This document shows, one piece after another, positions 499-29,963 of a DNA stretch of 39,021 nucleotides. Every line of letters begins with the position of its first letter. Position 1 is the first letter of the stretch. A model generated the notes under the pieces. It did no database searches. It saw nothing but the letters and a program-made list of their open reading frames with translations, and was not told the DNA's origin. The DNA lies in contig CAYOLJ010000001.1 in NCBI GenBank assembly GCA_964404805.1, positions 2,172-41,192 on the forward strand, given 5' to 3'. Both the position numbers and the translations under genes were made by a program. The DNA is from an uncultured Candidatus Peribacteria bacterium. GTDB taxonomy: Bacteria; Patescibacteriota; Gracilibacteria; Peribacterales; Peribacteraceae.

Positions 499-2310
499 AT
501 GTCTCCTGTGAGCACTGACGATATTCGAAAGGCATACTTAGACTTCTTTAAGAAAGAGGGTCACGCCGTGATTCCCGGGGCATCACTGATCCCTGAGAAC
601 GATCCTACTGTGCTCTTCACCACGGCCGGCATGCACCCGCTCGTGCCCTACCTGCTGGGCGAGACACACCCTGCGGGTAAGCGCCTCACCGACGTGCAGC
701 GTTGCATCCGCACACAGGATATCGACGAAGTGGGTGACGCGTCGCACCTCACGTTCTTTGAAATGTTGGGCAACTGGAGTTTGGGCGACTACTTCAAAGA
801 AGGGGCAATAGACATGAGTTTTCGGTTTCTGACGGAAATCCTGCAGATCCCGCGCGAGATGCTGGCAGTCACGTGCTTCGAGGGCGACAAAGATGCGCCG
901 AAGGACGAGGAATCGGCAAAGATCTGGGAGAAGATGGGCATTCCCCGCAAGCGAATTGGCTTCCTACCCAAGACCAAGAACTGGTGGGGACCTGCTGGCC
1001 AGACCGGCCCGTGCGGACCCGATACCGAGATGTTCTACTGGGTGGGCAAGGGCAAGCCACAAGGGAATCCCGCTACACACGAAGATGCGTGGCTCGAGAT
1101 CTGGAACGATGTCTTCATGCAGTACAACAAGAATGTAGATGGCACCTTCGAGCCGCTTGCCCAGCAGAACGTCGATACGGGAATGGGTTTGGAGCGCGTT
1201 GCGGCTGTCTTACAGGGAAAAAACAATGTGTACGAGACGGACCGGATGAAGCCGATTGCCGATCAGGTGATGGAGATGTCGGATCAGAAAGACGACCGAC
1301 ACCTGCGCGTTATTGTGGATCATCTTCGAGCTGCAACGTTCATCATTGGAGATGGCATCACTCCCTCGAATGTAGATCAGGGCTACATCTTGCGACGCCT
1401 GATTCGCCGCGCCATCCGCTCTGCGCGTCAGCTCAGAATCGAGCACGATGGTACGTTCACGCCTGCCATCGCCAAAGCGGTGATTGCGCAGTACGGTCAC
1501 ATATATCCGCAACTGCAGGAACGTCACGCAGCCATCGGCGAAGTGCTCGGTCGCGAGGAACAGCAGTTCGGCAAAACACTCAAAGAAGGGATGAAGCAAT
1601 TCGAGCGCGCAGCAGGAGAGGCAGGAACGCAGATGGACGGGACCACCGCATTCCACCTCTACGACACGTACGGCTTTCCACTGGAACTCACGAAGGAGCT
1701 CGCACAGGAAAAAGGACTCACGGTGGATGAGACGGGATTTAAGAAAAAATTTGAGGAACACCAGGCCCTCTCACGTGCAGGTGCCGAAGCCAAATTCAAA
1801 GGCGGACTGCAGGATCACGGCAGCCAGACGACCAAACTGCACACAGCGACACACCTCCTCAATGCAGCGCTACGGAAAGTGCTGGGCGATCACGTCTATC
1901 AGAAAGGCAGCAACATCACTGCGGAGCGACTGCGATTCGACTTTTCTCATCCCGACAAGATGACACCGGAACAGGTGAAAGAAGTGGAGAAGATTGTGAA
2001 CGAAGCCATTACGGCCGATCTGCCAGTGTCCTACCACGTCACCACCGTTGACGGTGCAAAGCAGGAGGGAGCCATCGGCGTCTTTGATGCACGGTACGGA
2101 GCGGAGGTTAAAGTGTATGTCGTGGGTGATCCCAAGAAAGGAGCCGTGTTCGGCAAAGAAATCTGTGGCGGACCCCACGTGGCTCGCACTGGAATGCTCG
2201 GGTCGTTCAAGATTCTCAAAGAAGAGAGCTCATCTGCTGGCGTGCGCCGCATCAAGGCTGTGCTTGAAGGAGGGACAGACGAGACCACCGTGGCCCAGGA
2301 GGAGTCATAG
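499..2310 (+). CDS. alaS: Alanine--tRNA ligase, compact form (catalytic + editing domains, no C-Ala domain)
   Basis: The N-terminus DIRKAYLDFFKKEGHAVIPGASLIPENDPTVLFTTAGM...HLTFFEMLGNWSLGDYFK is the class II AlaRS signature. The editing-domain Zn motifs HTATHLLNAAL and CGGPHV are present. The protein ends about 40 aa after CGGPHV, at 603 aa. Confidence 0.95.
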   Translation: MSPVSTDDIRKAYLDFFKKEGHAVIPGASLIPENDPTVLFTTAGMHPLVPYLLGETHPAGKRLTDVQRCIRTQDIDEVGDASHLTFFEMLGNWSLGDYFKEGAIDMSFRFLTEILQIPREMLAVTCFEGDKDAPKDEESAKIWEKMGIPRKRIGFLPKTKNWWGPAGQTGPCGPDTEMFYWVGKGKPQGNPATHEDAWLEIWNDVFMQYNKNVDGTFEPLAQQNVDTGMGLERVAAVLQGKNNVYETDRMKPIADQVMEMSDQKDDRHLRVIVDHLRAATFIIGDGITPSNVDQGYILRRLIRRAIRSARQLRIEHDGTFTPAIAKAVIAQYGHIYPQLQERHAAIGEVLGREEQQFGKTLKEGMKQFERAAGEAGTQMDGTTAFHLYDTYGFPLELTKELAQEKGLTVDETGFKKKFEEHQALSRAGAEAKFKGGLQDHGSQTTKLHTATHLLNAALRKVLGDHVYQKGSNITAERLRFDFSHPDKMTPEQVKEVEKIVNEAITADLPVSYHVTTVDGAKQEGAIGVFDARYGAEVKVYVVGDPKKGAVFGKEICGGPHVARTGMLGSFKILKEESSSAGVRRIKAVLEGGTDETTVAQEES

Positions 2311-2330: not shown

Positions 2331-3533
2331 TTGGCACACGTATATATGCGACTTCGCTCGCTCCTCCTCGCAACGGCTCTTCTCGCCCTGCCTGTGATCG
2401 CATCGGCGGAGCAACAGACAGTGCTCCATCTTGGTGATCAAGCGGAACAGGTACAGTGGCAGACCGTCGGTCTCCCACCGGTGACCCCACTCGAAAACGG
2501 CATCTATATCGCAACAACAAAAACAGGGACGCTCGCGCGCCCCCTTACGCTCCCCTACGGTATCGATGCGGTCACCGTCTCGTACACCAGCCCACGTGGT
2601 GCATCGCTCTCGTTCATCTGGCGCAGCACCGACAGCCCCGCCGGAAAGTATCTACAAATTCCCATCACCCTCCAGCCGAGCACCACCGCCACGTCAATCG
2701 TGGTAGACATGAGCGCTGTGGGAGGATGGGATCCGCACGCCGCTGCCATCGGCTTCCAACTTCCTCCCAATACCGAGATCATCTTTCATGATGTCGAATT
2801 GAACGGATGGAGTGTTAGAGAGAGCTTTATAGAAGCCATAAAATGTTTCTGGACGTTCGACAGGCTCAAGGCGCACAGCATCAACTTTTTCTGGGGTCCG
2901 CTGCTCTGCTCCACGCCTGTCTTGCGCGAAAATCTCTATCGGAATCAACCGCCCATAGCCCACTCTGCTATGCGGGTAGTGTACGCACTCCTCGCTATCT
3001 CAACGGGAATCATCGCCTTCATGGCCTGGTGCAAGCGTGACGGGAGTGCCCTCAAAAGGATCTTTGTGAGATCGGCGGTACTCTTTCTGCTCTTCTGGAT
3101 TGTGCTCGATATCCGCATGGGATCAGAACTCATCGCCGCATGGAGATACGACGTGCGCTCCTACCTTCAGCAATCCATCGGTAAACGCACATTCCGCACC
3201 ATGGGCTTTCTTCCGGATTTTGCACTGGCTACCCAGGGCATTCTCTCAGACCAACCACGTTACGTGTTCATCACACCCACAACAGACACCTTCGTGAACT
3301 TCATGCGGTACCAGACGTATCCCAGCCTCCCCGTGAAACCGGAAGAGGGATCTGACGCAGCCGTCTGGCTCGTCTATGGACGACCCGACCTGACCATAGG
3401 ATCCGACGGCCGCATCATGGAAGATGGCAAACCTCTTTCGCCTCCTGGCGCACTCGTGCACCAGTTCGCGGAGGGAATCTTCGTCTTCCGTGTGACATCA
3501 CAATCTTCTTCATCGTCATCGCTCGCCCCATGA
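2331..3533 (+). CDS. Membrane protein with N-terminal signal peptide, unknown function
   Basis: The 400-aa ORF has a signal-like N-terminus (LLLATALLALPVIASAEQ) and two or more internal TM segments (VVYALLAISTGIIAFMAW, AVLFLLFWIVLDI). Its stop overlaps the next start (ATGA at 3530-3533). Confidence 0.6.
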   Translation: MAHVYMRLRSLLLATALLALPVIASAEQQTVLHLGDQAEQVQWQTVGLPPVTPLENGIYIATTKTGTLARPLTLPYGIDAVTVSYTSPRGASLSFIWRSTDSPAGKYLQIPITLQPSTTATSIVVDMSAVGGWDPHAAAIGFQLPPNTEIIFHDVELNGWSVRESFIEAIKCFWTFDRLKAHSINFFWGPLLCSTPVLRENLYRNQPPIAHSAMRVVYALLAISTGIIAFMAWCKRDGSALKRIFVRSAVLFLLFWIVLDIRMGSELIAAWRYDVRSYLQQSIGKRTFRTMGFLPDFALATQGILSDQPRYVFITPTTDTFVNFMRYQTYPSLPVKPEEGSDAAVWLVYGRPDLTIGSDGRIMEDGKPLSPPGALVHQFAEGIFVFRVTSQSSSSSSLAP

Positions 3534-9344: not shown

Positions 9345-9546
9345 TAATAATTATAAGAGTACTGGGTTGCCTTTGCATTTTATGTGAATTTGCCTGTAAT
9401 GAACAATTAAAACTTTTAAAGAACTTTGTTTGCTGCATCTCTGTACGAACACCACTCACAGTACTTTGATGGTTTCGGCGTACTGGACGCGATTCGAACG
9501 TATGGAAATATTCAACTTAACTAAGAAAATCACATATAGTCTCAAT

Positions 9547-10470
9547 ATGAGCAAACTAGAGAAGCAACACTTCATTCCTGAGTTCTTTCTAAAGAATTTT
9601 GTAGAAGCTGAAAGCAGGGCTCGGAAGATCTATCGTCTATGGTCTCATCGAAAAGGTGTGGAGCCCGTGCTTTGTTCCACGCGTAAGCTTGCAAGAAAGA
9701 AGCATATTTATTCAACTCGTAAGAAAATAGGAGATACATATGAAAAATCTCACGAGCAACTACTCGACAAAATTGAAAGTATTGCTGCGCCAATCATTAC
9801 AAAAATTTTAACCACAAAAGATCTTTTCAAGTTGGATCAAAGAGAGCGAGATGATTTTTCCATTTTTATTGTAATACTAGCCGAACGCAACCCAATAGCG
9901 TTTTCGACTACAGATGCAATGATGAGAAGACTTTTTCTAAAAGAATATGCAGAGTCTATGAAGAAAACATCGGATAGTGATCTTCGAGAGATTTATGAAA
10001 AATCGAAAGCAAAGAATAAAGAATTAGAAAACGTTTCATTTGAAGAGGCTCGACAGGTGATGCTTGAAGGCCCTAAAGAAGAAAATTTAGCGCTCCCATT
10101 TAGCCATGGTATAAGCTCAATGTGGCAGGCGGCAAAAGAATGTTCGAAGTATATGCACATGAGGCAGTGGCAGCTGCTCTCTTCTGAGAAGGTTGGTAAG
10201 CACTTTTGGTTGTCCGATAATCCTGTCATAAAAATTCGGGATATACCGGAAGAAGAAGTGTATGAAGTCATGCAAGGTGGTTGGGGTAGGAAAGATTTAG
10301 AAATTGCCCTGCCACTCAGTCCCACTCTATGTTTTTATGCTGCAGGAAAGGTAGATGAGCAATTTTCAGTTATTAACACTACCTCAGTTGCAGCAATTAA
10401 TTGGTGGACCGTGCAACAAGCTGTCGATGAAGTCTATACCGCCACTAAAGAATTAGATGTTTGGAGTTAA
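9547..10470 (+). CDS. DUF4238-like protein
   Basis: The N-terminus MSKLEKQHFIPEFFLKNF matches the H-(F/Y)-(I/V)-P-x-F-(F/Y)-L-x-x-F start typical of DUF4238. Later motifs are LSDNPV and ALPLSPTLCF. The ORF is open from 9430, but the family-like start is the ATG at 9547. Confidence 0.7.
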   Translation: MSKLEKQHFIPEFFLKNFVEAESRARKIYRLWSHRKGVEPVLCSTRKLARKKHIYSTRKKIGDTYEKSHEQLLDKIESIAAPIITKILTTKDLFKLDQRERDDFSIFIVILAERNPIAFSTTDAMMRRLFLKEYAESMKKTSDSDLREIYEKSKAKNKELENVSFEEARQVMLEGPKEENLALPFSHGISSMWQAAKECSKYMHMRQWQLLSSEKVGKHFWLSDNPVIKIRDIPEEEVYEVMQGGWGRKDLEIALPLSPTLCFYAAGKVDEQFSVINTTSVAAINWWTVQQAVDEVYTATKELDVWS

Positions 10471-10555: not shown

Positions 10556-11389
10556 TCAGGCGGAGAGAGCTTCTGAAGCATCTTCCCGATACTGACACCA
10601 CTCACAATCAACAAAAGACTTCGGCGCTTTCTTCTGCTGAAGACACTTGTGAGCATCGATAATCGCCTTCTCTACCCAGCTTCGATCGCCTTTGTGAGAG
10701 ATGATCTGTTCATCGAAAACGAGTTTGCTACCAAATCCTGCTTGTCCTGTATCTGCATTCACATACACCCAGTAGCCGGTATCTGAGACATTGAATCCAT
10801 TCTTTTCCAATAACCACTGGTAAATTTCCATCTGCCTTTTGTAGGCATCTTTCCATGGAGTACCGTCATTGATATCGATCTCTTTAGTTGTGCTTGTAGA
10901 CTTATAATCCACAACCGGGAGTTTGCCCTTCGGATCAACCCAGATATCATCTACAGCTCCTGTGATCAGCAGGTTCGTTGGTTCATGTAAATACTACACA
11001 CCCTTAAAGTTCTCTCTCCACTCGCCCATTTTTTCGTGCTGGAATGGCACTGCATCTATCTTGTACTTTTTCATGAGAGGATGAGGCTTACTTTTTGCCC
11101 TGCAAATATCGAACTCCTTCTTAAGGAGGGTATCTGTTGCGGAGTTTAGAGTGAATGCTGGGCCAGAGACTTGTCCTACTCCCAAACGACGGTCGAGATA
11201 GAAGCACCGAGGACATTTGAGGAAGTTATCTATCTTCGAACGACTAAGTTTGAAAGGCTCTTTTGATTTGGGGTCAAAGATGTTGCGTGTGCGGGGTACG
11301 ATTGGATAATAGACTATGTTTGAATGGGTGTGTATATTATTAGTAACTCCACTCAACATGCCCCAGAGCTGACCGATTGAGTTCTTCAC
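10556..11389 (-). pseudogene. Cas4/RecB-like PD-(D/E)XK nuclease interrupted by a single in-frame TAG (10994-10996)
   Basis: ORFs 10994..11389 and 10556..10912 are in the same frame. The intervening codons read ...NFKGV*YLHEPTNLLITGAVDDIWVDPKGKLPVVDYKSTS... The N-terminal Cys (FLKCPRCFY), the D...DYK core and the C-terminal CEWCQY cluster fit a Cas4-like Fe-S nuclease. Confidence 0.7.
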
Positions 11390-15123: not shown

Positions 15124-16418
15124 ATTAGTCGTATCTTACCTGTTAATAGCACCTGCATCATACCCTGCTTTAGCATGTCGTATTTATCACGCTTTTTCTC
15201 TAAGCTCTCAATCTCTACGTCCATATTGGAGAGAATCGTGGCGATGGCAATTTGTTCAAGTATTGAAGAGGGAAGCAAAAGCTTGAAGATCTCTACATCC
15301 CTAATATTGAGTCCAGGCTGTGCAGCCCCCTTGAGATAAAGAGAAACTTGGCACTTTCCTATGTCGCTTAGAAGCGCATACTTGCAATAGGAACTAGATG
15401 CCTTATCTGGATCGATCGCGATCCTTGCTGTTGTTTGAGTTAGATTTGCACCTTCAAGCCATTCTGGAATGACTTCAACATAGCCGCAGTATCCAACAAT
15501 GGTCATAATCAAATCTCCTGCCTTTACCCTAGCATTACGATACCGGTCTTCAATTATTGGACTTACTCGGAATAATTCATAAGGCTTAGCCCAACCCTTA
15601 ACCTCAGAGTAATCTTGACCTCTAATCATATATCGCCCATTAGGATCAAACTTTCCTGGTTGAACAATCCCGTAGCGGATACTCCTAGATGGATCTACGA
15701 GGCTTGCAAGCGGAGTAATACTCCAATCATCTGGGATATCGCCTAATTCAGTCCGTTTAAATCCCTTTATTTCATCAAACCCCGGCAACCTCTTTTTACC
15801 AGTGAGGAGCTGCTGCATCGTGCCTTGTTTGATGGCTTTCTTTTTGGCGATTAGTTTCTCCAAGTGTTCTATCAGCGCATCGGTGTCGGAGAGGACGGCG
15901 GCGATGGCGGATTGCTGGGCTTTAGTCAAAGGTAATGGCAATAAGATTGATTTAATAATTTCGCCACTAAGGTTCGGCTGACCTCCTTGCGTATAAGTCT
16001 GAATAAGCCAATTTTTCTTATATATAAAATATTGGTATAAATAAATTGGGTCTTCATTTTTTGGTATCAAAGCCAGAATTGCCTGGTTAATTGCCCCTTC
16101 GATTCTTGTGAAGCCAGCCACACCTGCAGTAGCACCGTAAAGTGCAAGTAAAAATGTATTCGATTTTACTATTTTTGCAGATGAGTTTTCGAGACCCTTT
16201 TTTGTAATTCGACCGTTAACTGCATTAATTATTCCCATGTTTAAATCGCTTGATGTAATCCACGGGATATTACCGCCATAGTAAGAAGGGTTAGAAGTTG
16301 AAGGCGTGCCACCAGAGTATGCAACACAAATATCCCCCAATTTTTTTACATCCCAATCCTGTGGAATTACTCCTAGATCGGTTTGTTTGTAGCCGGTTTT
16401 GATCGGTGCAATTCCCAT
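15120..16418 (-). CDS. hsdS: Type I R-M specificity subunit
   Basis: 432 aa with two target-recognition halves. These are separated by and end in the conserved helices (LPLPLTKAQQSAIAAVLSDTDALIEHLEKLIAKKKAIKQGTMQQLLTGK; ...LEKKRDKYDMLKQGMMQVLLTGKIRL). Confidence 0.9.
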   Translation of the reverse strand: MGIAPIKTGYKQTDLGVIPQDWDVKKLGDICVAYSGGTPSTSNPSYYGGNIPWITSSDLNMGIINAVNGRITKKGLENSSAKIVKSNTFLLALYGATAGVAGFTRIEGAINQAILALIPKNEDPIYLYQYFIYKKNWLIQTYTQGGQPNLSGEIIKSILLPLPLTKAQQSAIAAVLSDTDALIEHLEKLIAKKKAIKQGTMQQLLTGKKRLPGFDEIKGFKRTELGDIPDDWSITPLASLVDPSRSIRYGIVQPGKFDPNGRYMIRGQDYSEVKGWAKPYELFRVSPIIEDRYRNARVKAGDLIMTIVGYCGYVEVIPEWLEGANLTQTTARIAIDPDKASSSYCKYALLSDIGKCQVSLYLKGAAQPGLNIRDVEIFKLLLPSSILEQIAIATILSNMDVEIESLEKKRDKYDMLKQGMMQVLLTGKIRLI

Positions 16419-16972
16419 TAGCCTTGACGTGATAAAAATATTTCAACCAGCGGGCGCAGTGTTTTATATCCATTTTCAATGAGTAACTGATCTCTCTCAT
16501 CTTGTGGGTTCTTTCCGCCATGAAAGAGGTTATTCCGAACTGAATGCCAAAACTCCACCATATTTTCCCAGTCACCTAAACCGTGAATTACACCTTTTGC
16601 TGTCTGTTGCTCTCCTTGCACCTGATCGCCAAGATGATCACTTGAGCAATTCCACCATTTTATCTCCTCCGCTTCGTCACCACTACAACTGACATTTACA
16701 AGAGAAGTGCTGTCCAATTCCTCGGTAATCTTTTCCCAAGCCTCACGAAGATTCGGTGCATCATTAACCTTTTTTAGATATGCTTTCTTGAAAGTATTAT
16801 CTTGTTTCAGATGTTGAATTGCACGACGATCAGTTTCTGCATCTATATATTTAATCTTTTTCAAGAATGCAATAAATGCCAGGTACTCAAAAACATACTT
16901 AGAAAAATAATCCTCGTCTGAAGCTTTGGTATGCCAGTTTTGAATTAGCTGAAGGAAATTCATAGTATTCAC
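16418..16972 (-). CDS. HEPN-like protein (R-x4-H motif) embedded between hsdM and hsdS
   Basis: The 184-aa all-helical-looking ORF carries FWHSVRNNLFHGGKN near its C-terminus (RNNLFH encoded at 16520-16537). It overlaps the hsdS start by 1 nt (TAATG). It either overlaps the hsdM stop or lies 5 nt or less from it. Confidence 0.55.
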   Translation of the reverse strand: MNTMNFLQLIQNWHTKASDEDYFSKYVFEYLAFIAFLKKIKYIDAETDRRAIQHLKQDNTFKKAYLKKVNDAPNLREAWEKITEELDSTSLVNVSCSGDEAEEIKWWNCSSDHLGDQVQGEQQTAKGVIHGLGDWENMVEFWHSVRNNLFHGGKNPQDERDQLLIENGYKTLRPLVEIFLSRQG

Positions 16973-20214: not shown

Positions 20215-20955
20215 TCATAGGACTTTGAGGGAAGGATGGTAAAACTCAACTCCTCCATAACTCTGTATCCCTTTATAAAAAGGCGAGTTCGCTATATAGC
20301 GAACGGACATTGCTGAAAAACGGCGAATATCGCTGTAGTTCTTGTTAAGGTGGTCGGCTATGCGCTGATAGGACATTCTTTTGCCATGTCTGGGCTTTCT
20401 GCGGAGTTTGTAAATCTCACGGACAATCGCAAGTTCGTTCTCTACGGGAACATAACCACTGCCGACTGCCTTATAGCCGAAGGCAACATTGCCACCGCTA
20501 TACCCCCTCCCGCTCTCGGCCTTCTTCTTTCGCCCTGCACTGAGGCGGAGTGAAATCATAGCCTTCTCATATTCCGCAATCGCCCCTTTCATCTGACGAA
20601 AAAGAATGCGCGAGGGGTCTTGCGAATCCAAGTCCGGCTCGTCAATGGATATTGGTTGGACGTTGAGCTTCTGAAACTCAAGTAGGAGCTGTTCCTGAAT
20701 CAATAGTGACCTTGATAACCTGTCTAATCGAAGAAATACCACAGCATCTACCTCATGCACCTTAATGTACTCAAATAACTTTCCTAGAGCTGGACGTTTA
20801 GCAAGCGAGCCACTTACACCTTCTTCTCTGAAGATCTGTATGAGAGTGTGCCCTTGATCCTTTGTATATGCTTTGATTTTGTCCGCTTGGATCTGTAAGC
20901 CATAGCCGACTGCCTGTCCTGATGTGCTGATTCTGGAATATCCTACTAACTTCAT
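20215..20955 (-). CDS. Short serine recombinase: resolvase catalytic domain plus the start of a recombinase domain, without zinc ribbon or coiled-coil
   Basis: MKLVGYSRISTSGQ...VVFLRLDRLSRS is followed by GGNVAFGYKAV...ELAIVREIYKL...MSYQRIADHLN...IANSPFYKG. At 246 aa it ends where large serine recombinases continue. Confidence 0.85.
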   Translation of the reverse strand: MKLVGYSRISTSGQAVGYGLQIQADKIKAYTKDQGHTLIQIFREEGVSGSLAKRPALGKLFEYIKVHEVDAVVFLRLDRLSRSLLIQEQLLLEFQKLNVQPISIDEPDLDSQDPSRILFRQMKGAIAEYEKAMISLRLSAGRKKKAESGRGYSGGNVAFGYKAVGSGYVPVENELAIVREIYKLRRKPRHGKRMSYQRIADHLNKNYSDIRRFSAMSVRYIANSPFYKGIQSYGGVEFYHPSLKVL

Positions 20956-21004: not shown

Positions 21005-21283
21005 CTAAAAATCCTCCGGCTCCTTGCCGAAGACCGTTTTGTAAACTTCGCAAAGTTGTTTGTACTCTCGTCCTCTATAGGGGTCTGTGTCAGGCTTCTT
21101 CGGGTGCCATCGGTTGAGTGCGAGGCGGAAGGAGCGAAGTACTGCCTTGGAGCAGCAAGGGCTGTTTTCGACCTTCTGCGTTGATGGTATAACCTTTGTA
21201 GGTTGTTGTGATGGCTTTGTTGAACTATTTAGATCTTTATCTTGGAATGCCATTGCTGCTGGCGACTTTGGAATGGAAATCAT
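21005..21283 (-). CDS. Small protein with a J-domain-like C-terminus (HPK in place of HPD)
   Basis: KAVLRSFRLALNRWHPKKPDTDPYRGREYKQLCEVYKTVF aligns by eye with J-domain helices II-III (..AYRKLAxKYHPDK....F..I.EAY.VL). Confidence 0.4.
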   Translation of the reverse strand: MISIPKSPAAMAFQDKDLNSSTKPSQQPTKVIPSTQKVENSPCCSKAVLRSFRLALNRWHPKKPDTDPYRGREYKQLCEVYKTVFGKEPEDF

Positions 21284-21361
21284 AGAAAAGTTGTGAAAGA
21301 AATAAAACTTGTAAGAGCTAATGGTGATTCATGTCATAGAAAAGTTGTGAAAGAAATAAAA
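21280..21361. repeat. Two exact 28-nt direct repeats (21280-21307 and 21334-21361)
   Basis: TCATAGAAAAGTTGTGAAAGAAATAAAA occurs twice, 54 nt apart. On the minus strand the first copy contains the leader and ATG of ORF 21005..21283. Confidence 0.9.
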
Positions 21362-21797: not shown

Positions 21798-22877
21798 TCA
21801 AAGTTCTTCGAGTGTGTGCATGCCCAATTTCTCAATTGTATGTCCAAATGGCTTATCTGTTTCATGCTTTTTTGGGTCTATTGAATAGTCAAGCTTTCGA
21901 TTCAATGTGTATCCTGAGCTGTCTATTTTCAAAGAAGCAACATTTTTAATAATCAGATGTTCATAGCACAAGCAAAGCTCTTTTGCTGACAAGCTTAGTT
22001 CCAACTTTGTATCAAAATCATCGAATACTTTATCCAAACTTCCCGATTTCTTGAGCCAAGCCAAATCCCATCCTGTTTCCCATTCCTTACGATCATTTGC
22101 TTTCATTGATTGCATTGCCTTCCAAATTGCTGCCATTACAATTCCTGGGCTGGGTGCATGCTCTAGAAGTTCGCGTACGTGTTTAGCCTGCTGCTCATAT
22201 TCGAGAACGCTTTTCCCCATACCCGAATAAAAACTGAGTATTACTAATGCAACGTCGTTGGCACCCATTTTATTAAACGGCGTCTCTGAAAGAAGTAATT
22301 TTCGCAATCTTGCAATCAGGACAGCACTGTTCGGAAGATGCGGAAAGATAGAGTTCAGAAGAATATTTTGTTCAGAAGAGAGTTTGTTTCCGCCTGCATC
22401 AACATCATCTTCTTGTTCTTTCTTCTTGTTAGTCTCTTCTTGTTCTTTCTTCTTGTTATGTTGGGCAGCAGTGATTAGAGGGTCTGAGCCCTCATGGTCA
22501 GAACTATCATCTTCTATGAGAGATGAGTCTGATTCTATGTGAGTCGATGCCGAATCATCAGTAATCATAGGGGTCTTATCACTGGTGATCGGAGGATTCT
22601 TCGGAAATATTTTTCTGTTGTTTCCTGTGCTCTGTAAAACGTCTACCTCTATGTAGCCATAGTCTTTGAGTTGCCTTAGCCAACGTGTAATAGTCGGCTT
22701 TGAACAACCTATCTCTTTTGCCAAATAATTGTTATAAGCCCAGCAGTAACCCTCTTTTCTAGCCAAGGAGAAGATGCGTACAGCGAGACAACGCGCACCT
22801 AGCTGTAAGCGTGTGTCCTCATTAACGAGAAACACCCACTTCATTGTTACCGATAGTTTTGAAGTCTTCTTTTTCAT
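21798..22877 (-). CDS. wHTH replication-initiator / replisome-organizer-like protein
   Basis: The N-terminus LAVRIFSLARKEGYCWAYNNYLAKEIGCSKPTITRWLRQLKDYGYIEV resembles a plasmid/phage initiator-type winged helix. An acidic, low-complexity linker contains an in-frame 24-nt repeat (22408-22431 and 22435-22458) encoding NKKKEQE twice. Confidence 0.65.
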   Translation of the reverse strand: MKKKTSKLSVTMKWVFLVNEDTRLQLGARCLAVRIFSLARKEGYCWAYNNYLAKEIGCSKPTITRWLRQLKDYGYIEVDVLQSTGNNRKIFPKNPPITSDKTPMITDDSASTHIESDSSLIEDDSSDHEGSDPLITAAQHNKKKEQEETNKKKEQEDDVDAGGNKLSSEQNILLNSIFPHLPNSAVLIARLRKLLLSETPFNKMGANDVALVILSFYSGMGKSVLEYEQQAKHVRELLEHAPSPGIVMAAIWKAMQSMKANDRKEWETGWDLAWLKKSGSLDKVFDDFDTKLELSLSAKELCLCYEHLIIKNVASLKIDSSGYTLNRKLDYSIDPKKHETDKPFGHTIEKLGMHTLEEL

Positions 22878-24920: not shown

Positions 24921-25139
24921 ATGACGAAAAACCCTAAAATACTGGCTGCGGGTGATGTTGCTGAACTCCTTGGGGTCTCCTATCAATACATTGATAAGTT
25001 GGCACGGGAAGGGCGGATTCCCTACCAAATGACTTCATCTGGTAAAGTTTTCCTTGAGCCCGATGTGATGGCTTTTCAGCGTGAACGTGAGAGAAAGGCA
25101 AAGACGGACCCTTGCATAAAGAGAAAGCGTAATCGCTAA
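24921..25139 (+). CDS. Excisionase-family (MerR-like) helix-turn-helix DNA-binding protein
   Basis: ILAAGDVAELLGVSYQYIDKLAREGRIPYQMTSSGKVFLEPDVMAFQRE matches the Xis/AlpA-type HTH pattern. Confidence 0.8.
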   Translation: MTKNPKILAAGDVAELLGVSYQYIDKLAREGRIPYQMTSSGKVFLEPDVMAFQRERERKAKTDPCIKRKRNR

Positions 25140-28100
25140 TTGTCAGAAAAACGGTACAATTTCCTAATGAGCCGTAGAGATGAGTTTTTAACAGGAACAC
25201 AACGAAAGGTCGGAGACAGGGTGGGCTGGCGCTGTTCTAGGCCTGAATGTCGCGCGCCCGTGAAAGGTCCTACCTTGAACCCTGAGGGGGTGGCAAACAT
25301 TGGCGTCTTTGCGCACATCACAGCGGCCGCAAGAGGTGGACCACGTTACGAAGAAAAGCTCACCCCCGAACAGAGAAGGTCCGCAGCTAATGCGATTTTA
25401 CTATGTCAGAATTGCGCGAAGCTGATTGACAACGATGAAGAAGAATATTCAGTGAATGTGTTAACGGACTGGAAGTCGCAAGCTGAAAAGAAATCCAAGG
25501 AAGAATTGGGAGCTCCTCTTGCAAGGCTACAGAAAAAGATTGACGAAGTGATTGCTCATATTGGAGGCAAAAACGGAATTTCTAAACAGTTCCTTGATGC
25601 GATAATTGAGCAAATCGAAGACCTTATTAACAGACAAAAGGGTCAACATGCTCTCAATTTCATTGAGCCTTTGGTTGAGAAGGCATGGAATGCCTTAGAT
25701 AATGGTGAGAAATATAAGCTTTTGCGCCTGAAAGCTTTGTCGTTGTTGCAGCTTGGAAAGAATAAAGAAGGAGCTAAAAGCTTTATAGATGCACTCCCCT
25801 ATAACAAAGGTCATGATAAAGCCTTTTCAAACGCAGCCTGGGGTTACCAGATTCTTAAGAAGAAAGCTCAAGCTATCGAATACGCTAGGAAAGCTATCAA
25901 AATGAATCCTGAGAATATACGAAGCTACTGTATTTTGGCTGAGGTATTACCAAAGAATCAGTTAAATAAACTAAAAGCAGAGACTCCAAACATCGTAGCA
26001 AACCATGCGGAATTCGCTATGTCTTTGGGCAGGAGGGCAAAAAATGATTTGGTTGAAGCAGAAAAGTGGCTGAGGGTGGCTGTAGAAAATGCTAACGAAA
26101 ATCCGGCGCAACCAAAGGCGATGCTGGCTGAAATATTAATCATGTCCGCCATGAGAGGTAGACCCTTTGCTGACAACGATGAACTTAAAACAGACGAATC
26201 CAAAAAAATTAAAGAAGCAATGAGCTTATTAGAAAGCGTTTATGAAGAAATAAAGGGTGCAGATAACAACAAAACTCTCGCACGTATTTTGCAGAATTTG
26301 AGCACTGCGAACGCAAGTCTTGGTCATCTTGATGATGCATTACGATTCATGGAGAAATGCTTAGAGGTAAGCAACGAGTATAAGTATCAAAGACGCCGCG
26401 TTGAACTGCTTTGGATTACGGGCAAAGTAAAAGAGGCAAAGGATGCTTTAAGGAAAATTAAAATTCCTGCAGATAGGAGTACTGATTTGTTAGAAGCAGA
26501 TATTCTCCGCTCAGAAAATCAATTCACCGAAGCGGAAAAATTGGTGGATAAATTTCTATCAAGAAAGAAAAAGACTAAATGGAAAAAAGACGCAAATAGA
26601 CTGAGGCTAAGGATTTATATGCAAAAAAAAGAATTTTCTGCCGCAGAAACATTTTCTGCAGATTTGTTAAAGAAAAACCCTGATGATATTGATAACCTTA
26701 TTGATGCTGCCAACTTGCAGAAAATATTGAAGGCACCAGATAAAGCGAAATCGCTTGTGGAAACTGCTGAAAGCAAATTACGTAAGGAGGATTCGTTTCA
26801 AAACATTAGGCAAGTAGCCGACGCTTATTTTGGTTTAAAGGAGTACACACGCGCATGTGCTCTATATGAAAGAATTTCTGACGGCCAAACTAATAATGAT
26901 GTTACCAAACATCTCCTACATTGTTATTACTTGAATGGTGACTACAAAAAGGCACTGCAAGTGTGCGAGCAAGTAAGGAAGTGGTATGGATACCAAACCT
27001 ATTTTTCAGAGGTAGAAGCGGTTATCTACGAGAAGATGGGCGATATACCTAAGGCGCAACAAGTTACTGAAGACTATTTAGCTGCACATCCAGGTGACGC
27101 GAAAATGAGTCTGCAATTGGCCCGTCTATACGCAAGAACTCACGATACTGATAAAATTAAGTCTCTCATTAGCAATTTAACGGGCGAGGACTGGGGTCTA
27201 GAAGAAAGATTGAGCCTGGCATTCTTAAATGCTGAGGTTGGCGAGCTAGAGAAGGCATTTGATATTGCTTATGAAACACGCAGAAAATTTATCAAAGATG
27301 AACGGGCGCATCCGGCTTATATAAGTTTTTTCATGCAGACAGAGAAGCCAGCTGGTATTCATCCTGAAATTGTAGGGGTTGATACTGTTGCATTTTTTGA
27401 TAATGGAATTGGAGAACGAGAATATTACTTAATTGAAGAAAAGAAGAGAGATGGGTATGACCTCAAAGAAATTAGTGCTGATGAACAGCGGGCCCAAGGA
27501 CTATTAGGAAAGAAGATTAATGATGAGTTTGATTTGGTCATTAATCACATTGGTGGAGAGAAAGGGACCCTAAAAATAATTCAAAGCAAACATGTTTTTG
27601 CATATCAGGAAAGTATGAAGGAATACGCCCGTATGATTCCGAATAATCCTGCTTTTACGATGGGTGTAACTGAAAAGGGAAAGGAGAAAGAACAACTAGA
27701 AATGATGATGCTATTAGCAGGACAAAGAGCAAAAAATATTGAGTTCCTAGAAGATTTCTATCTAAAGAAGAAGACGCCCATTGGTATGTACGCGGAAAGA
27801 GCAGGTATAGACATTGTGCAGCTATTTAGCGGACTACAGTATGCAAATGATAAAAAGATTATTTGCTGTATTGGTGACATTGATGAACAGTCAGAAGCAG
27901 CACAGTGCTTTGCTCCTCCATATGATGAAGCAACTCCAATAATGGATGCTACAGCAATACTGACAGTGCATTATCTGGGTATAGAGGAAAAAGTTGCAGC
28001 CTTTTTTAAGGAAATTGGAATTTCGCAGAGTACTAGGGATGTCTTTACTCAAAAGATTGAAGAATTAGAATCAACGCCTCCAGCTGGATATTTAGGTGCA

Positions 28101-28823
28101 GATAGTTATTCAGAGGTGAAACCAGAGGACATTGCAAAAGAGATTGCTCGACTTAAAAGGATTAGAGATTGGCTTGATAAGCACTGCAAAATTTTGAGAG
28201 TTAACGCAGTTGTTGATATGGGAGGAAAACGGAAAGAAGAATTAGATGAAATCTTTGGCTCTGAGTTCATTGATAGTGTGCTGCTCGCATCTGAGCAAAA
28301 TCACTTCCTTTACTCAGATGATTTTTTAACAAGGGTCGTCGCACGGAATGAATTTAAAGTAAAAGGAATGTGGACCCAGTTATTGATGATGCGATTGTTA
28401 AAGGTTCAACAGATGGCAAATGATGAATACGCAAAAGCATCTGCTGCCTTAGTTGAAGCGGACTATGACTACACAAGTGTAAACGAGCATGTACTAATGC
28501 TCATTGCTGAAAAAATGGGATGGAAACCAGAAGGACTATTTTTAAAAGTAATAGAAATTATCAAAACTGCAGAAGTAAACTCATTACTAAGAATGGCAGC
28601 TGGTTTTCTGTTTGAGCTAATGCACAAAACCATTCTAACCCCCATGCTGAAAGAAGGTATGATAATTGGATTCCTAAATGCCATCACTCAAAACCAAAAA
28701 GACTTAGATGCATTTCTCAAAAAATTAATAGCTTTGTTAAGTCGTAGATTTAGCCTCTCACAAGCACTACTTCAAGAACTACTAGCAATTATCGCAGAGT
28801 GGAGAACTACACAGCTAAGATAA
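25140..28823 (+). CDS. Giant multidomain protein: N-terminal HNH-like nuclease, TPR array, GreA/GreB C-terminal-like domain, PIN-like domain, helical tail
   Basis: 1227 aa. The domains are:
- aa ~30-100: WRCSRPEC...GVFAHITAAARGGPRY...NAILLCQNCAKLID (HNH-like);
- aa ~165-700: repeated TPR-like helix pairs;
- aa ~745-818: VDTVAFFDNG..REYYLIEE...EISADEQRAQGLLGKKINDEFDL...LKIIQ (GreA/B-C pattern);
- aa ~933-1070: IMDATAIL...KIEELE...LLASEQNHFLYSDDFLTR (PIN-like acidic residues).
The start is either TTG 25140, which abuts the HTH stop, or ATG 25167. Confidence 0.85.
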   Translation: MSEKRYNFLMSRRDEFLTGTQRKVGDRVGWRCSRPECRAPVKGPTLNPEGVANIGVFAHITAAARGGPRYEEKLTPEQRRSAANAILLCQNCAKLIDNDEEEYSVNVLTDWKSQAEKKSKEELGAPLARLQKKIDEVIAHIGGKNGISKQFLDAIIEQIEDLINRQKGQHALNFIEPLVEKAWNALDNGEKYKLLRLKALSLLQLGKNKEGAKSFIDALPYNKGHDKAFSNAAWGYQILKKKAQAIEYARKAIKMNPENIRSYCILAEVLPKNQLNKLKAETPNIVANHAEFAMSLGRRAKNDLVEAEKWLRVAVENANENPAQPKAMLAEILIMSAMRGRPFADNDELKTDESKKIKEAMSLLESVYEEIKGADNNKTLARILQNLSTANASLGHLDDALRFMEKCLEVSNEYKYQRRRVELLWITGKVKEAKDALRKIKIPADRSTDLLEADILRSENQFTEAEKLVDKFLSRKKKTKWKKDANRLRLRIYMQKKEFSAAETFSADLLKKNPDDIDNLIDAANLQKILKAPDKAKSLVETAESKLRKEDSFQNIRQVADAYFGLKEYTRACALYERISDGQTNNDVTKHLLHCYYLNGDYKKALQVCEQVRKWYGYQTYFSEVEAVIYEKMGDIPKAQQVTEDYLAAHPGDAKMSLQLARLYARTHDTDKIKSLISNLTGEDWGLEERLSLAFLNAEVGELEKAFDIAYETRRKFIKDERAHPAYISFFMQTEKPAGIHPEIVGVDTVAFFDNGIGEREYYLIEEKKRDGYDLKEISADEQRAQGLLGKKINDEFDLVINHIGGEKGTLKIIQSKHVFAYQESMKEYARMIPNNPAFTMGVTEKGKEKEQLEMMMLLAGQRAKNIEFLEDFYLKKKTPIGMYAERAGIDIVQLFSGLQYANDKKIICCIGDIDEQSEAAQCFAPPYDEATPIMDATAILTVHYLGIEEKVAAFFKEIGISQSTRDVFTQKIEELESTPPAGYLGADSYSEVKPEDIAKEIARLKRIRDWLDKHCKILRVNAVVDMGGKRKEELDEIFGSEFIDSVLLASEQNHFLYSDDFLTRVVARNEFKVKGMWTQLLMMRLLKVQQMANDEYAKASAALVEADYDYTSVNEHVLMLIAEKMGWKPEGLFLKVIEIIKTAEVNSLLRMAAGFLFELMHKTILTPMLKEGMIIGFLNAITQNQKDLDAFLKKLIALLSRRFSLSQALLQELLAIIAEWRTTQLR

Positions 28824-28899: not shown

Positions 28900-29214
28900 A
28901 TGAAGATGGATAAAGATACATTTGACCGCCTTATTGCTTATTTTTGTGTTGTTTTTCTAGGGCTCACTGCAGGAATTTACATGTACTTTCTCTTAAATTT
29001 TTTAGGTCTTAGTCCATGGCTAATTACTGGCATTGGCACAATTACAGGAATTAATGTTTCTTTTTGGGCGAATAAACTATACTCAAAGACTCGGAACCAA
29101 TCACCTTACCTTCTACATCATATCTTCTGCGGGTCAGCATTGCTCTTACTCATAACTGTGCTTGGTGACATCAAAAATCTATGCAAACGTGTTATCCCTA
29201 AATGTGTACTATGA
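28900..29214 (+). CDS. Small three-TM membrane protein
   Basis: The 104-aa ORF has three hydrophobic segments. It is co-directional with the giant gene and overlaps the next ORF by 13 nt. Confidence 0.5.
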   Translation: MKMDKDTFDRLIAYFCVVFLGLTAGIYMYFLLNFLGLSPWLITGIGTITGINVSFWANKLYSKTRNQSPYLLHHIFCGSALLLLITVLGDIKNLCKRVIPKCVL

Positions 29215-29963
29215 ATAACGCTTGGAAAGAAACATTAACGGGTCTCGGATTATCGCTTCTTGGTGGAATTGCCGTATTTCTGGTTATTAATTCTCACTTT
29301 AACTCAAATCCTTCAAGTCCAAGTAACGGCGGTGTTGATATTCCCGATATAAATATTCCCGATGTCACAACGCTGCCTGACTGCCAAAAGAAGCCTCTTG
29401 AAGGAGAAATAGCCAAATTTTTCCCTGAAGCAAATGCGTGTCAACAAAAAGAATATAACGAATTTACATTCGTTCCCATTTTAGCAAATTCAAATAGTCC
29501 CATAAAAATATCATCTGGTTCCATAATCCAAAATTCAAAAACGATTCTGATTAGTGGAAATATCACAAGTGCGCGCCTGTATATTAATGCCACGGTTGAC
29601 GATGCAGATTACTCCTCTAGCAGGAAGAACGCTGTATATTTCTATATTGATAGTGGTGATTTTGGAGGCTATCTGAATGCGGTACGTAAAAATGGAAGTG
29701 AACTCACAGGTGACAGTGAGGGTGTATTTCTTTCTAGTGATGTGCCAAAAATATTTATAGAAGACCTATTTCAGCCCACCCAGGTTGCGGCTAAAGCGGG
29801 TGACATAGGTTCACGCACAATCGATTTTTGGAAAAAACTAACGCCTGGTAGGCATATTACATATGCCTACGTTTCAAAACCTCAATATGGAAGAATCACG
29901 GAAATGGCAATAGCCTACAAATGTGACGAGCAGCCCTGTGCTATCTCAACAGAAAATAACTAG
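29202..29963 (+). CDS. Membrane-anchored / exported protein, unknown function
   Basis: The 253-aa ORF has an N-terminal TM (LTGLGLSLLGGIAVFLVI) followed by a ~200-aa non-hydrophobic domain. Confidence 0.55.
   Translation: MCTMNNAWKETLTGLGLSLLGGIAVFLVINSHFNSNPSSPSNGGVDIPDINIPDVTTLPDCQKKPLEGEIAKFFPEANACQQKEYNEFTFVPILANSNSPIKISSGSIIQNSKTILISGNITSARLYINATVDDADYSSSRKNAVYFYIDSGDFGGYLNAVRKNGSELTGDSEGVFLSSDVPKIFIEDLFQPTQVAAKAGDIGSRTIDFWKKLTPGRHITYAYVSKPQYGRITEMAIAYKCDEQPCAISTENN

Follow-up and report, generated by a model that had tools for sequence, protein, structure and literature searches.

The DNA analysed here, called the window, is a stretch of 39,021 nucleotides from an uncultured Candidatus Peribacteria bacterium (contig CAYOLJ010000001.1). 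It encodes a protein of about 1,200 residues (the window protein) in which an N-terminal HNH domain is followed by TPR repeats, a domain resembling the C-terminal part of GreA and GreB (GreA/B-C) and a PIN domain. An earlier note on this DNA had regarded the protein, together with the small helix-turn-helix (HTH) gene in front of it, as a candidate uncharacterised conflict system. Both open reading frames (ORFs) were found where that note had placed them, 24921-25139 (72 aa) and 25140-28823 (1,227 codons), and all four modules were recovered by profile searches, with AlphaFold and Foldseek supporting GreA/B-C and PIN. As judged by its match to Pfam family PF20698, the protein is a single-polypeptide member of the TPR-GreA/B-C-PIN (TGP) family of conflict systems, and its classification as a conflict or defence protein holds. 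The locus is composed as follows.

24921..25139, plus strand: 72-aa excisionase/AlpA-type HTH gene, from near-threshold family matches; stop codon TAA at 25137-25139
25140..28823, plus strand: ORF of the HNH-TPR-GreA/B-C-PIN (TGP) protein, 1,227 codons from TTG 25140, with full-length homologues
25167..25523, plus strand: predicted Cap5-type HNH (His-Me finger) nuclease, aa 10-128, from PADLOC and PDB profile matches; the variable effector position
25524..27239, plus strand: helical linker and TPR array, aa ~129-700, presumed sensor or scaffold, from Pfam TPR families
27372..27599, plus strand: GreA/GreB C-terminal-like (FKBP-like) domain, aa ~745-820, from family profile and fold matches
27939..28346, plus strand: TGP-type PIN nuclease domain, aa 934-1069, from Pfam PF20698
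28380..28820, plus strand: C-terminal all-helical region of the TGP constant module, aa ~1081-1227, from end-to-end family alignment

Start codon and domain composition

An ORF of 1,227 codons in DNA of 37-44% GC is not attributable to chance. It opens with a TTG at 25140 directly after the TAA of the upstream ORF (25137-25139), and to this extent the description of the gene as abutting the HTH stop codon was correct. However, the corresponding NCBI product (P0001), which is 100% identical to the window protein, comprises 1,218 aa, and all homologues of the N-terminal domain open with the sequence M-x-RDDF. The true start is therefore most likely ATG 25167 (Met10), giving a product of 1,218 aa from a gene that begins 27 nt past the HTH stop instead of abutting it. 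Residue numbers are counted from TTG 25140.

The family assignment is carried by the PIN domain. Profile PF20698 ('PIN-TPR-GreABC') matches aa 934-1069 with E 1.4e-20 and 74.4 bits (cut-off 27.8), spanning profile positions 1-137 of 138. The acidic set of this domain comprises D936, E975, D1045 and D1060/D1061. Across 150 family representatives, D936 is conserved in 96%, D1045 in 85%, D1060 in 88% and D1061 in 98%, and E975 is acidic in only about 60%. The earlier note had thus selected two conserved sites (D936 and D1060/D1061) and the less constant E975, but had missed D1045. On the N-terminal side, the Pfam families TPR_19, TPR_14, TPR_16, TPR_2, TPR_8 and TPR_12 match within aa ~167-672, several of them above their cut-offs, and the resulting array is about 540 aa long.

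Between these two regions, the motif EIS779ADEQRA785QGL788LGK791 aligns with I120-K133 of GreA. With a profile of the aa 738-840 region of the family, we could detect E. coli GreA over residues 91-155 of 1grj (E 5.5e-5) and, with less significance, GreB (2p4v, E 0.055); 41 of 45 family members match PF01272, the best of them at E 9e-9. An AlphaFold (AF2) model covering aa 700-1227, made from 20 diverse C-terminal family fragments, reached a mean predicted local distance difference test score (pLDDT) of 83.5 and a predicted template modelling score (pTM) of 0.69; an earlier model from a 3-sequence alignment (pLDDT 54) was discarded. Foldseek searches of the PDB with this model returned GreA, GreB, Gfh1 and Rnk as top matches (probability 1.00, root-mean-square deviation 2.3-4 Å, ~81-87 columns), including Gfh1 bound to RNA polymerase (RNAP; 3aoi), and the PIN protein PAE2754 (1v8p; probability 1.00, template modelling score 0.66-0.70). 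The GreA/B-C assignment is thus supported by profile and predicted fold, and the PIN assignment by PF20698 and predicted fold.

The Gre-like domain has in common with GreA, GreB, Gfh1 and Rnk the fold and the signature IS..(S/H)P.A..L.GK..GD of their C-terminal globular domain. Unlike the Gre factors, it is not preceded by an N-terminal coiled-coil finger whose acidic tip extends to the RNAP active site, and it is a divergent copy embedded in a 1,200-aa protein. The region following the PIN domain forms confident helices in the AF2 model (pLDDT mostly 85-96); conserved residues lie at the junction of the two (W1078/T1079/Q1080) and inside the tail (Y1097, L1104, W1128, F1156). For these last ~150 residues Foldseek found no fold match in the PDB. 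A Walker A motif, [AG]xxxxGK[ST], is absent from the window protein, and no NTPase or STAND family matches it in Pfam, NCBIfam or PADLOC. Membership in the STAND/Avs type can therefore be rejected, as the earlier note had argued from the lack of a P-loop.

The N-terminal domain resembles the nuclease of the CBASS effector Cap5. PADLOC endonuclease-effector profiles match aa 19-131 with E 1.7e-23 to 1e-17, among them PDC-M68A (1.7e-23), CBASS 'Effector Endonuclease' (1.6e-17) and SAVED_HNH. Used as a single sequence, the 140 N-terminal residues match 9om4 (2e-6), 7rwm (3e-5) and 7rwk, and a profile of the HNH subfamily matches 9om4 (3.7e-19), 7rwk (1.3e-11) and also 7rwm and 8fm1 in the PDB. 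Homology to the HNH of Cap5 (HNH-SAVED; 7rwk, 7rwm, 8fm1, 9dif), with E to 1e-11, extends to the AHI general-base motif, the GGPR motif, the Asn, the ID Mg ligand and the Zn knuckle. In contrast to Cap5, the window protein has no cyclic-nucleotide signalling and carries Ala93 in place of His91; in Pfam and PADLOC scans we found no SAVED domain, and the PADLOC matches end at about aa 130-150. Alignment to PsCap5, the mechanism of which has been described (PMC12141522), assigns the residues of the domain as follows.

H59 (in VFAHI), PsCap5 His56: general base, invariant in the subfamily
N84, PsCap5 Asn82: structural Asn, invariant in the subfamily
D97, PsCap5 Asp95: Mg ligand, invariant in the subfamily
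A93, PsCap5 His91: second Mg ligand, absent from the window protein
C32, C37, C89, C92: Zn knuckle of the HNH domain

The loss of a Mg-coordinating residue raises the question as to whether this HNH domain is catalytically dead or weakened and serves only for DNA binding or dimerisation, leaving all killing and defence to the PIN domain as an RNase. Since position 93 is Ala or Gly in 11 of 11 aligned members of the HNH subfamily, the substitution is a trait of the subfamily and not a sign of decay in this protein; the same uniformity is also what speaks for an impaired domain. On the other hand, H59, N84, D97, the GGPRY motif and the four Zn ligands show little or no variation within the subfamily, and many STAND proteins have a member of this subfamily in their effector slot and no further effector. 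Furthermore, several His-Me finger nucleases, such as I-PpoI and Serratia nuclease, work with a single protein metal ligand. We consider an inactive HNH domain unlikely.

The same HNH subfamily (44-51% identity) also forms the N-terminus of proteins containing NACHT, nSTAND3, AAA_16 or NCAB2 domains (P0005-P0012). In these STAND/NLR-type (Avs-like) proteins, the HNH domain likewise precedes a repeat-containing sensor; the window protein differs from them in having no NTPase. Because it tips such diverse proteins, the subfamily is, by its distribution among sequences, a mobile effector cassette of immune-type sensors.

The TGP family and its N-terminal effectors

To relate the window protein to its family, we performed an exhaustive HMMER search with the 528-aa C-terminal module. 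This search returned 1,993 cluster representatives (clustered at 50% identity) at E<=1e-3, and 258 at <=1e-30. Most of these relatives align with the module from end to end, and their typical length is 1,250-1,320 aa. The constant core of the window protein (aa ~130-1227, comprising TPR, GreA/B-C, PIN and helical tail) is colinear with hundreds of family members. A Mrr_cat-like restriction-endonuclease (REase) N-terminus is common to 71 of 113 full-length relatives, and PNP_UDP_1, SIR2_2, SMEK_N and DUF4365 occur as other N-termini. The HNH domain in question is found on a TGP core in only two of the 150 best relatives, P0002 (79% identical) and P0003 (44%), and no further cluster in the databases searched combines the two.

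The variety of N-termini agrees with the effector list and source data of Kaur, Iyer, Burroughs and Aravind (2021, eLife 10:e70394, PMC8195603), who described a constant TPR/GreA/B-C/PIN region with N-terminal EAD10 and an N-terminal slot held by one of 13 effectors, HNH among them. The computational prediction of systems of the TPR-GreAB-C-PIN type that the earlier note mentioned is therefore real, and it is also embodied in Pfam PF20698. The same note knew of no version with an N-terminal HNH domain, but the source data of Kaur et al. list precisely such an entry, 'HNH+TPR+GreAB-C+PIN' (PSL26440.1, 1,234 aa, Chitinophaga ginsengisoli). Compared by this catalogue entry alone, PSL26440.1 and the window protein have the same domain order and similar lengths (1,234 versus 1,218-1,227 aa). 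Both are standalone genes and follow the same predicted logic, in which the TPR-GreA/B-C-PIN core is constant and the effector varies. The architecture strings of the source data, counted at two strings per entry, include 906 with REase, 41 with PNPase, 4 with HNH and 4 with EAD10 among 2,971 containing 'GreAB'. HNH fusions are thus rare, accounting for about 2 of roughly 1,500 catalogued TGP entries.

The most informative relative is P0013, an REase-type protein of 1,250 aa. Window aa 130-1225 are colinear with its aa 155-1250 at 40% identity, and the P0013 core is as close to the window core as is that of the HNH-bearing P0003; the N-termini of P0013 and the window protein are unrelated. Because a colinear, 40% identical core is joined to unrelated N-termini, we interpret the pair, by alignment, as a clean effector swap of HNH versus REase type, with a junction at about aa 130. 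In the REase-type TGP proteins, which form the majority class (P0013; also Pseudomonas fluorescens Pf01_1829, tabulated by Kaur et al.), the effector is likewise a DNase, built as a Mrr_cat-like PD-(D/E)xK nuclease, a fold unrelated to the His-Me finger of the window protein.

Scans of genome, viral and metagenome contig collections revealed no new HNH-TGP loci beyond that of P0002 (L002). By tblastn, the window protein found no match in phages and eight distant TGP homologues in plasmids, and TGP homologues occur on large plasmids. PADLOC 2023, which the earlier note had proposed as a check, recognised only the HNH tip through its endonuclease-effector profiles and has no model for the TGP core.

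Agp is the only TGP family member for which we found experimental anti-phage data. Ibarlosa et al. (2024, bioRxiv 10.1101/2024.11.07.622273) reported that the Bab/Agp pair of E. coli ECOR25 mediates abortive-infection (Abi) defence against T5 and some Drexlerviridae. The GreA/B-C mutations S628L and L634P of Agp abolish this defence. T5 infection triggers Agp-dependent assembly of an N-terminal amyloid motif, and S628L abolishes this assembly as well. Bab/Agp is toxic when over-expressed and tolerated at native level (same source). With this study, the view that such proteins lacked experimental characterisation falls, and so does the label "uncharacterised": the kind of system is published and partly tested by experiment.

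According to the description by its authors, Agp contains TPR, GreA/B-C and PIN as does the window protein. Agp (1,094 aa) carries a ~25-residue N-terminal BASS11 amyloid motif that signals in trans to Bab, a 109-aa membrane-targeting executioner. In contrast, the window protein carries a predicted globular HNH DNase in cis, and killing would occur by DNA degradation, not membrane damage. Its globular Zn-knuckle HNH domain begins at about residue 10 and leaves no room for a 25-residue BASS11 motif. As a separate observation, six TGP proteins of 1,121-1,206 aa (P0041, P0043, P0059, P0062, P0097, P0138) have no globular N-terminal domain and instead a short N/Q/V/T-rich N-terminal stretch, for example NQAQVSGVTNSSVDIKQQNLEIGTVAINVTVN, reminiscent of the Agp amyloid motif.

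The existence of a partner gene in Agp directs attention to the neighbours of the window gene. For comparison we used the locus of P0003 (L001) and that of P0002 (L002), which makes three loci together with the window. Two ORFs lie just downstream of the large gene.

28900-29214, plus strand: small multi-pass membrane protein (104 aa)
29202-29963, plus strand: 253-aa protein with an N-terminal hydrophobic segment

No family matches either of them, and neither is conserved beside homologues. The 104-aa ORF was considered as a Bab-like small membrane partner but found no support in that role: it is unlike the gene downstream of P0002 and matches no family. No Bab-like neighbour was identified among the genes next to the window gene, namely the HTH gene and these two membrane-protein ORFs, and no downstream partner is common to the window, L001 and L002.

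On the upstream side, the HTH gene scores 25.6 bits with Pfam HTH_17 (cut-off 27), 22.5 bits with MerR and 26.2 bits with NCBIfam TIGR01764 'excise' (cut-off 28.8), and it matches the PHROGs excisionase families phrog_66 (9e-7) and phrog_4691 (4e-6). It is probably an excisionase/HTH_17 member that falls just under the thresholds. A search of viral contigs revealed no relatives. The HTH gene and the large gene could in principle form a two-gene module in which the HTH protein acts as antitoxin, repressor or trigger, for example tied to excision of the element. The two lie on the same strand with a gap of 0-27 nt, and HTH adjacency recurs at the locus of the 79% homologue. In that locus (L002), however, only a 3' remnant of the HTH gene is left (residues 28-71, 73% identity); its 5' half including the DNA-binding helices is lost and the remainder has an in-frame stop, beside an intact TGP ORF of 1,219 aa. 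In L001 no Xis-type ORF was found beside the TGP gene, and a divergently oriented Terminase_2 gene lies upstream instead. Given also the excisionase matches and the report of mostly standalone TGP genes (PMC8195603), we consider such a module very improbable. The proposal that the HTH gene is a component of the system can thus be dismissed by its absence in L001 and by the truncated pseudogene in L002. To judge from these loci, the HTH gene most likely belongs to the mobile element, as excisionase or regulator, and is neither part of the TGP system nor required for it. Since neither L001 nor L002 keeps an upstream or downstream partner, comparison of the three loci supports a standalone TGP gene, as in Kaur et al.

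Two observations concern the sequence just upstream of the large gene. A motif G(G/C)TACAATTT precedes the ATG by 4-6 nt in both the window (25153-25162) and L002 (2540-2549). It could be a -10 element that provides the large gene with its own promoter and a very short leader. A consensus promoter scan did not flag this motif, and promoter and terminator scans around the gene gave fewer matches than shuffled sequence and are uninformative. At L002 positions 1902-2306 and 2367-2498, on a metagenomic contig, a transfer-messenger RNA (tmRNA) gene lies directly upstream, ending 246 nt before the TGP ATG, and homology to the window begins in the middle of the HTH gene. The L002 element seems to have inserted at, or rearranged next to, ssrA.

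Proposed mechanism

How might such a protein work? In the explanation that we consider best, with a probability of about 0.6, the TGP core senses infection and self-associates, thereby pairing HNH domains that degrade DNA and abort the infection. The protein would be latent in uninfected cells. During phage infection the core would detect a change, possibly at RNAP, and this sensing would lead to self-association of the core, as the T5- and GreA/B-C-dependent amyloid assembly of Agp suggests. Self-association would juxtapose the HNH domains, as in the formation of the Cap5 active site, and the paired domains would degrade DNA non-specifically, such that the cell dies before phage release. As for the PIN domain, it may be a first tier that cleaves nascent transcripts at the polymerase, or it may serve mainly the fold of the core.

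The sensor role is assigned to the core because GreA/B-C mutants of Agp lose defence and because S628L also loses infection-induced assembly. The HNH domain would be a proximity-activated effector because it is homologous to that of Cap5, and in PsCap5 the HNH catalytic site is dimeric and formed only between two HNH domains juxtaposed on tetramerisation (PMC12141522). By this analogy, the window HNH is probably activated through juxtaposition of two HNH domains, and activation would come from the TGP core, not from a nucleotide ligand as in Cap5.

Several points weigh against this explanation. We found no report of direct RNAP binding by any TGP protein, and docking is proposed here by analogy. 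Oligomerisation of the core is likewise extrapolated from Agp, and both the DNase activity of the HNH domain and the catalysis by the PIN domain are predicted for this protein. The GreA/B-C segment noted earlier stands by family profile and fold, but the window segment alone is too divergent to match PF01272, and it contains EQ for the family HP, N794 for Gly and H818 for Tyr. With Ala93 at the site of the Mg ligand His91 of PsCap5, one of two protein Mg ligands is gone from the HNH domain. Finally, the PIN mutant D762N of Agp lost defence but also protein stability (10.1101/2024.11.07.622273).

This last result bears as well on the model of Kaur et al. (PMC8195603), in which GreA/B-C engages the rim of the RNAP secondary channel, PIN cuts the extruded transcript and the N-terminal effector is an apoptotic back-up. 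The mechanism outlined in the earlier note, TPR-mediated sensing with RNAP docking and cleavage by PIN or HNH, is essentially this published hypothesis. Applied to the window protein, PIN would cut the backtracked or extruded phage transcript at RNAP, and HNH would act as a suicide back-up, triggered only when this first tier is overwhelmed. Consistent with such a division of labour, the PIN acidic residues D936, D1045 and D1060/D1061, 85-98% conserved in the family, are intact here, and GreA/B-C and PIN are about 90 residues apart in the AF2 model, with a linker that is partly of low confidence. Transcript cleavage by a TGP protein is nevertheless a prediction only; the Agp mutant D762N lost defence together with protein stability; and the Bab/Agp phenotype is abortive infection by an effector, not a non-lethal first tier. 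We therefore regard this two-tier model as a tentative alternative, which overlaps our preferred explanation rather than excluding it.

In its most complete form, the preferred explanation of a sensing core with paired HNH domains would describe a one-protein Abi device. The Gre-like domain would read the state of the host RNAP, PIN would act on nascent RNA first, and HNH, activated by oligomerisation, would then act on DNA. Taken as a whole, this is possible but less likely than not. If true, it would be the simplest available system to show sensing by a TGP core, with the effector in cis, no amyloid relay and no second gene, and would allow docking of the core in the RNAP secondary channel to be put to the test.

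The window protein is a rare new member of a published and partly tested kind and does not found a new one: its family, the principle of variable effectors and the same domain arrangement appeared in print in 2021, and in 2024 a family member was shown to confer defence. The value of the protein is practical. TGP proteins are widespread (the 1,993 cluster representatives above), and a version with a cis-fused DNase would offer DNA cleavage as a simple readout, which would bear on Gre-like monitoring of RNA polymerase, on the role of PIN and on activation by induced proximity. The locus is furthermore a clean natural example of effector swapping, HNH versus REase type on a 40% identical core with the junction near aa 130.

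The host island

The TGP gene is cargo of an island with low GC content that is about 24 kb long (about 6.8-30.6 kb). The island is flanked by housekeeping DNA of 52-59% GC that encodes alanyl-tRNA synthetase (AlaRS), AdoMet decarboxylase, a MatE transporter and a DEAD-box helicase. It contains a large serine recombinase, a DUF4238 gene, a complete type I restriction-modification (R-M) system, a second serine integrase fragment, a replication-initiator gene and the excisionase-like HTH gene. We found no convincing att-type direct repeats flanking the island. The mobile-element context described in the earlier note is thus borne out by the low GC content, the serine recombinases and the type I R-M system; the HEPN gene that it also named is weakly supported, by a motif with no profile match.

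This location suggests yet another role, in which the protein mainly serves the mobile element, by post-segregational killing, by keeping competing elements out or simply as a toxin. Serine-recombinase elements carry the gene in the window and in L001, in L002 it lies on an island next to a tmRNA gene, TGP homologues are carried by large plasmids, and over-expressed Bab/Agp is toxic. However, the only member of the family tested acts as an Abi system specific to phage and is tolerated at native expression, no antitoxin-like partner is conserved, and a variable-effector architecture is typical of immune sensors. We consider a mainly element-serving role quite unlikely and retain infection-triggered DNA degradation as the preferred explanation.

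The other features of the window are listed below.

499-2310, plus strand: AlaRS, short form of 603 aa with catalytic and SAD domains
2331-3533, plus strand: 400-aa ORF after AlaRS, no family match
9430-10470, plus strand: DUF4238 protein (Pfam 8e-36; PADLOC candidate-defence 'DUF4238-Pers' 4e-7)
10556-10912, minus strand: 118-aa ORF matching only the C-terminal part of PD-(D/E)XK/Cas4 profiles
10994-11389, minus strand: ORF just upstream of the 118-aa ORF, with a CPRCFY motif
16418-16972, minus strand: 184-aa ORF in the type I R-M operon, with hsdS on one side and hsdM on the other, and with an RNNLFH (Rx4H, HEPN-like) motif near the C-terminus
20215-20955, minus strand: 246-aa serine recombinase, matching phrog_95 (phage large serine integrase) at positions 91-321 of 651 with 1e-55
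21280-21307 and 21334-21361: perfect 28-nt direct repeats, 54 nt apart, located between the truncated integrase and replication-initiator genes
22408-22431 and 22435-22458: perfect 24-nt tandem pair inside the replication-initiator gene

The serine recombinase at 20215-20955 looks like a truncated second integrase. Together with steps in GC content at ~12-15 and 17-20 kb, this suggests that the island was assembled from at least two elements. The 28-nt repeats could be iterons, an origin or a recombinase site. The ORF at 16418-16972 is probably the HEPN gene of the earlier note; it has no Pfam match, and in PADLOC it matches JukA only weakly (0.0044). The ORFs at 10556-10912 and 10994-11389 look, from their partial profile match and motif, like a split or frameshifted Cas4-like nuclease gene. 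From its Pfam and PADLOC matches, the DUF4238 gene is possibly another defence gene in the same island.

Finally, we considered whether the host could be an archaeon, in which a Gre-like domain would be odd. The closest relative of the flanking AlaRS (70%) comes from a Kiritimatiellales metagenome-assembled genome, and others (55-61%) are found in Lentisphaeria, spirochaetes, bacteria of the candidate phyla radiation (CPR) and DPANN archaea. Judged by this AlaRS, the contig would be of PVC-group origin, in contrast to PSL26440.1 from Bacteroidota. An archaeal host was rejected on the basis of this closest match to a bacterium, and with a bacterial host an interaction of the Gre type with RNAP is plausible.

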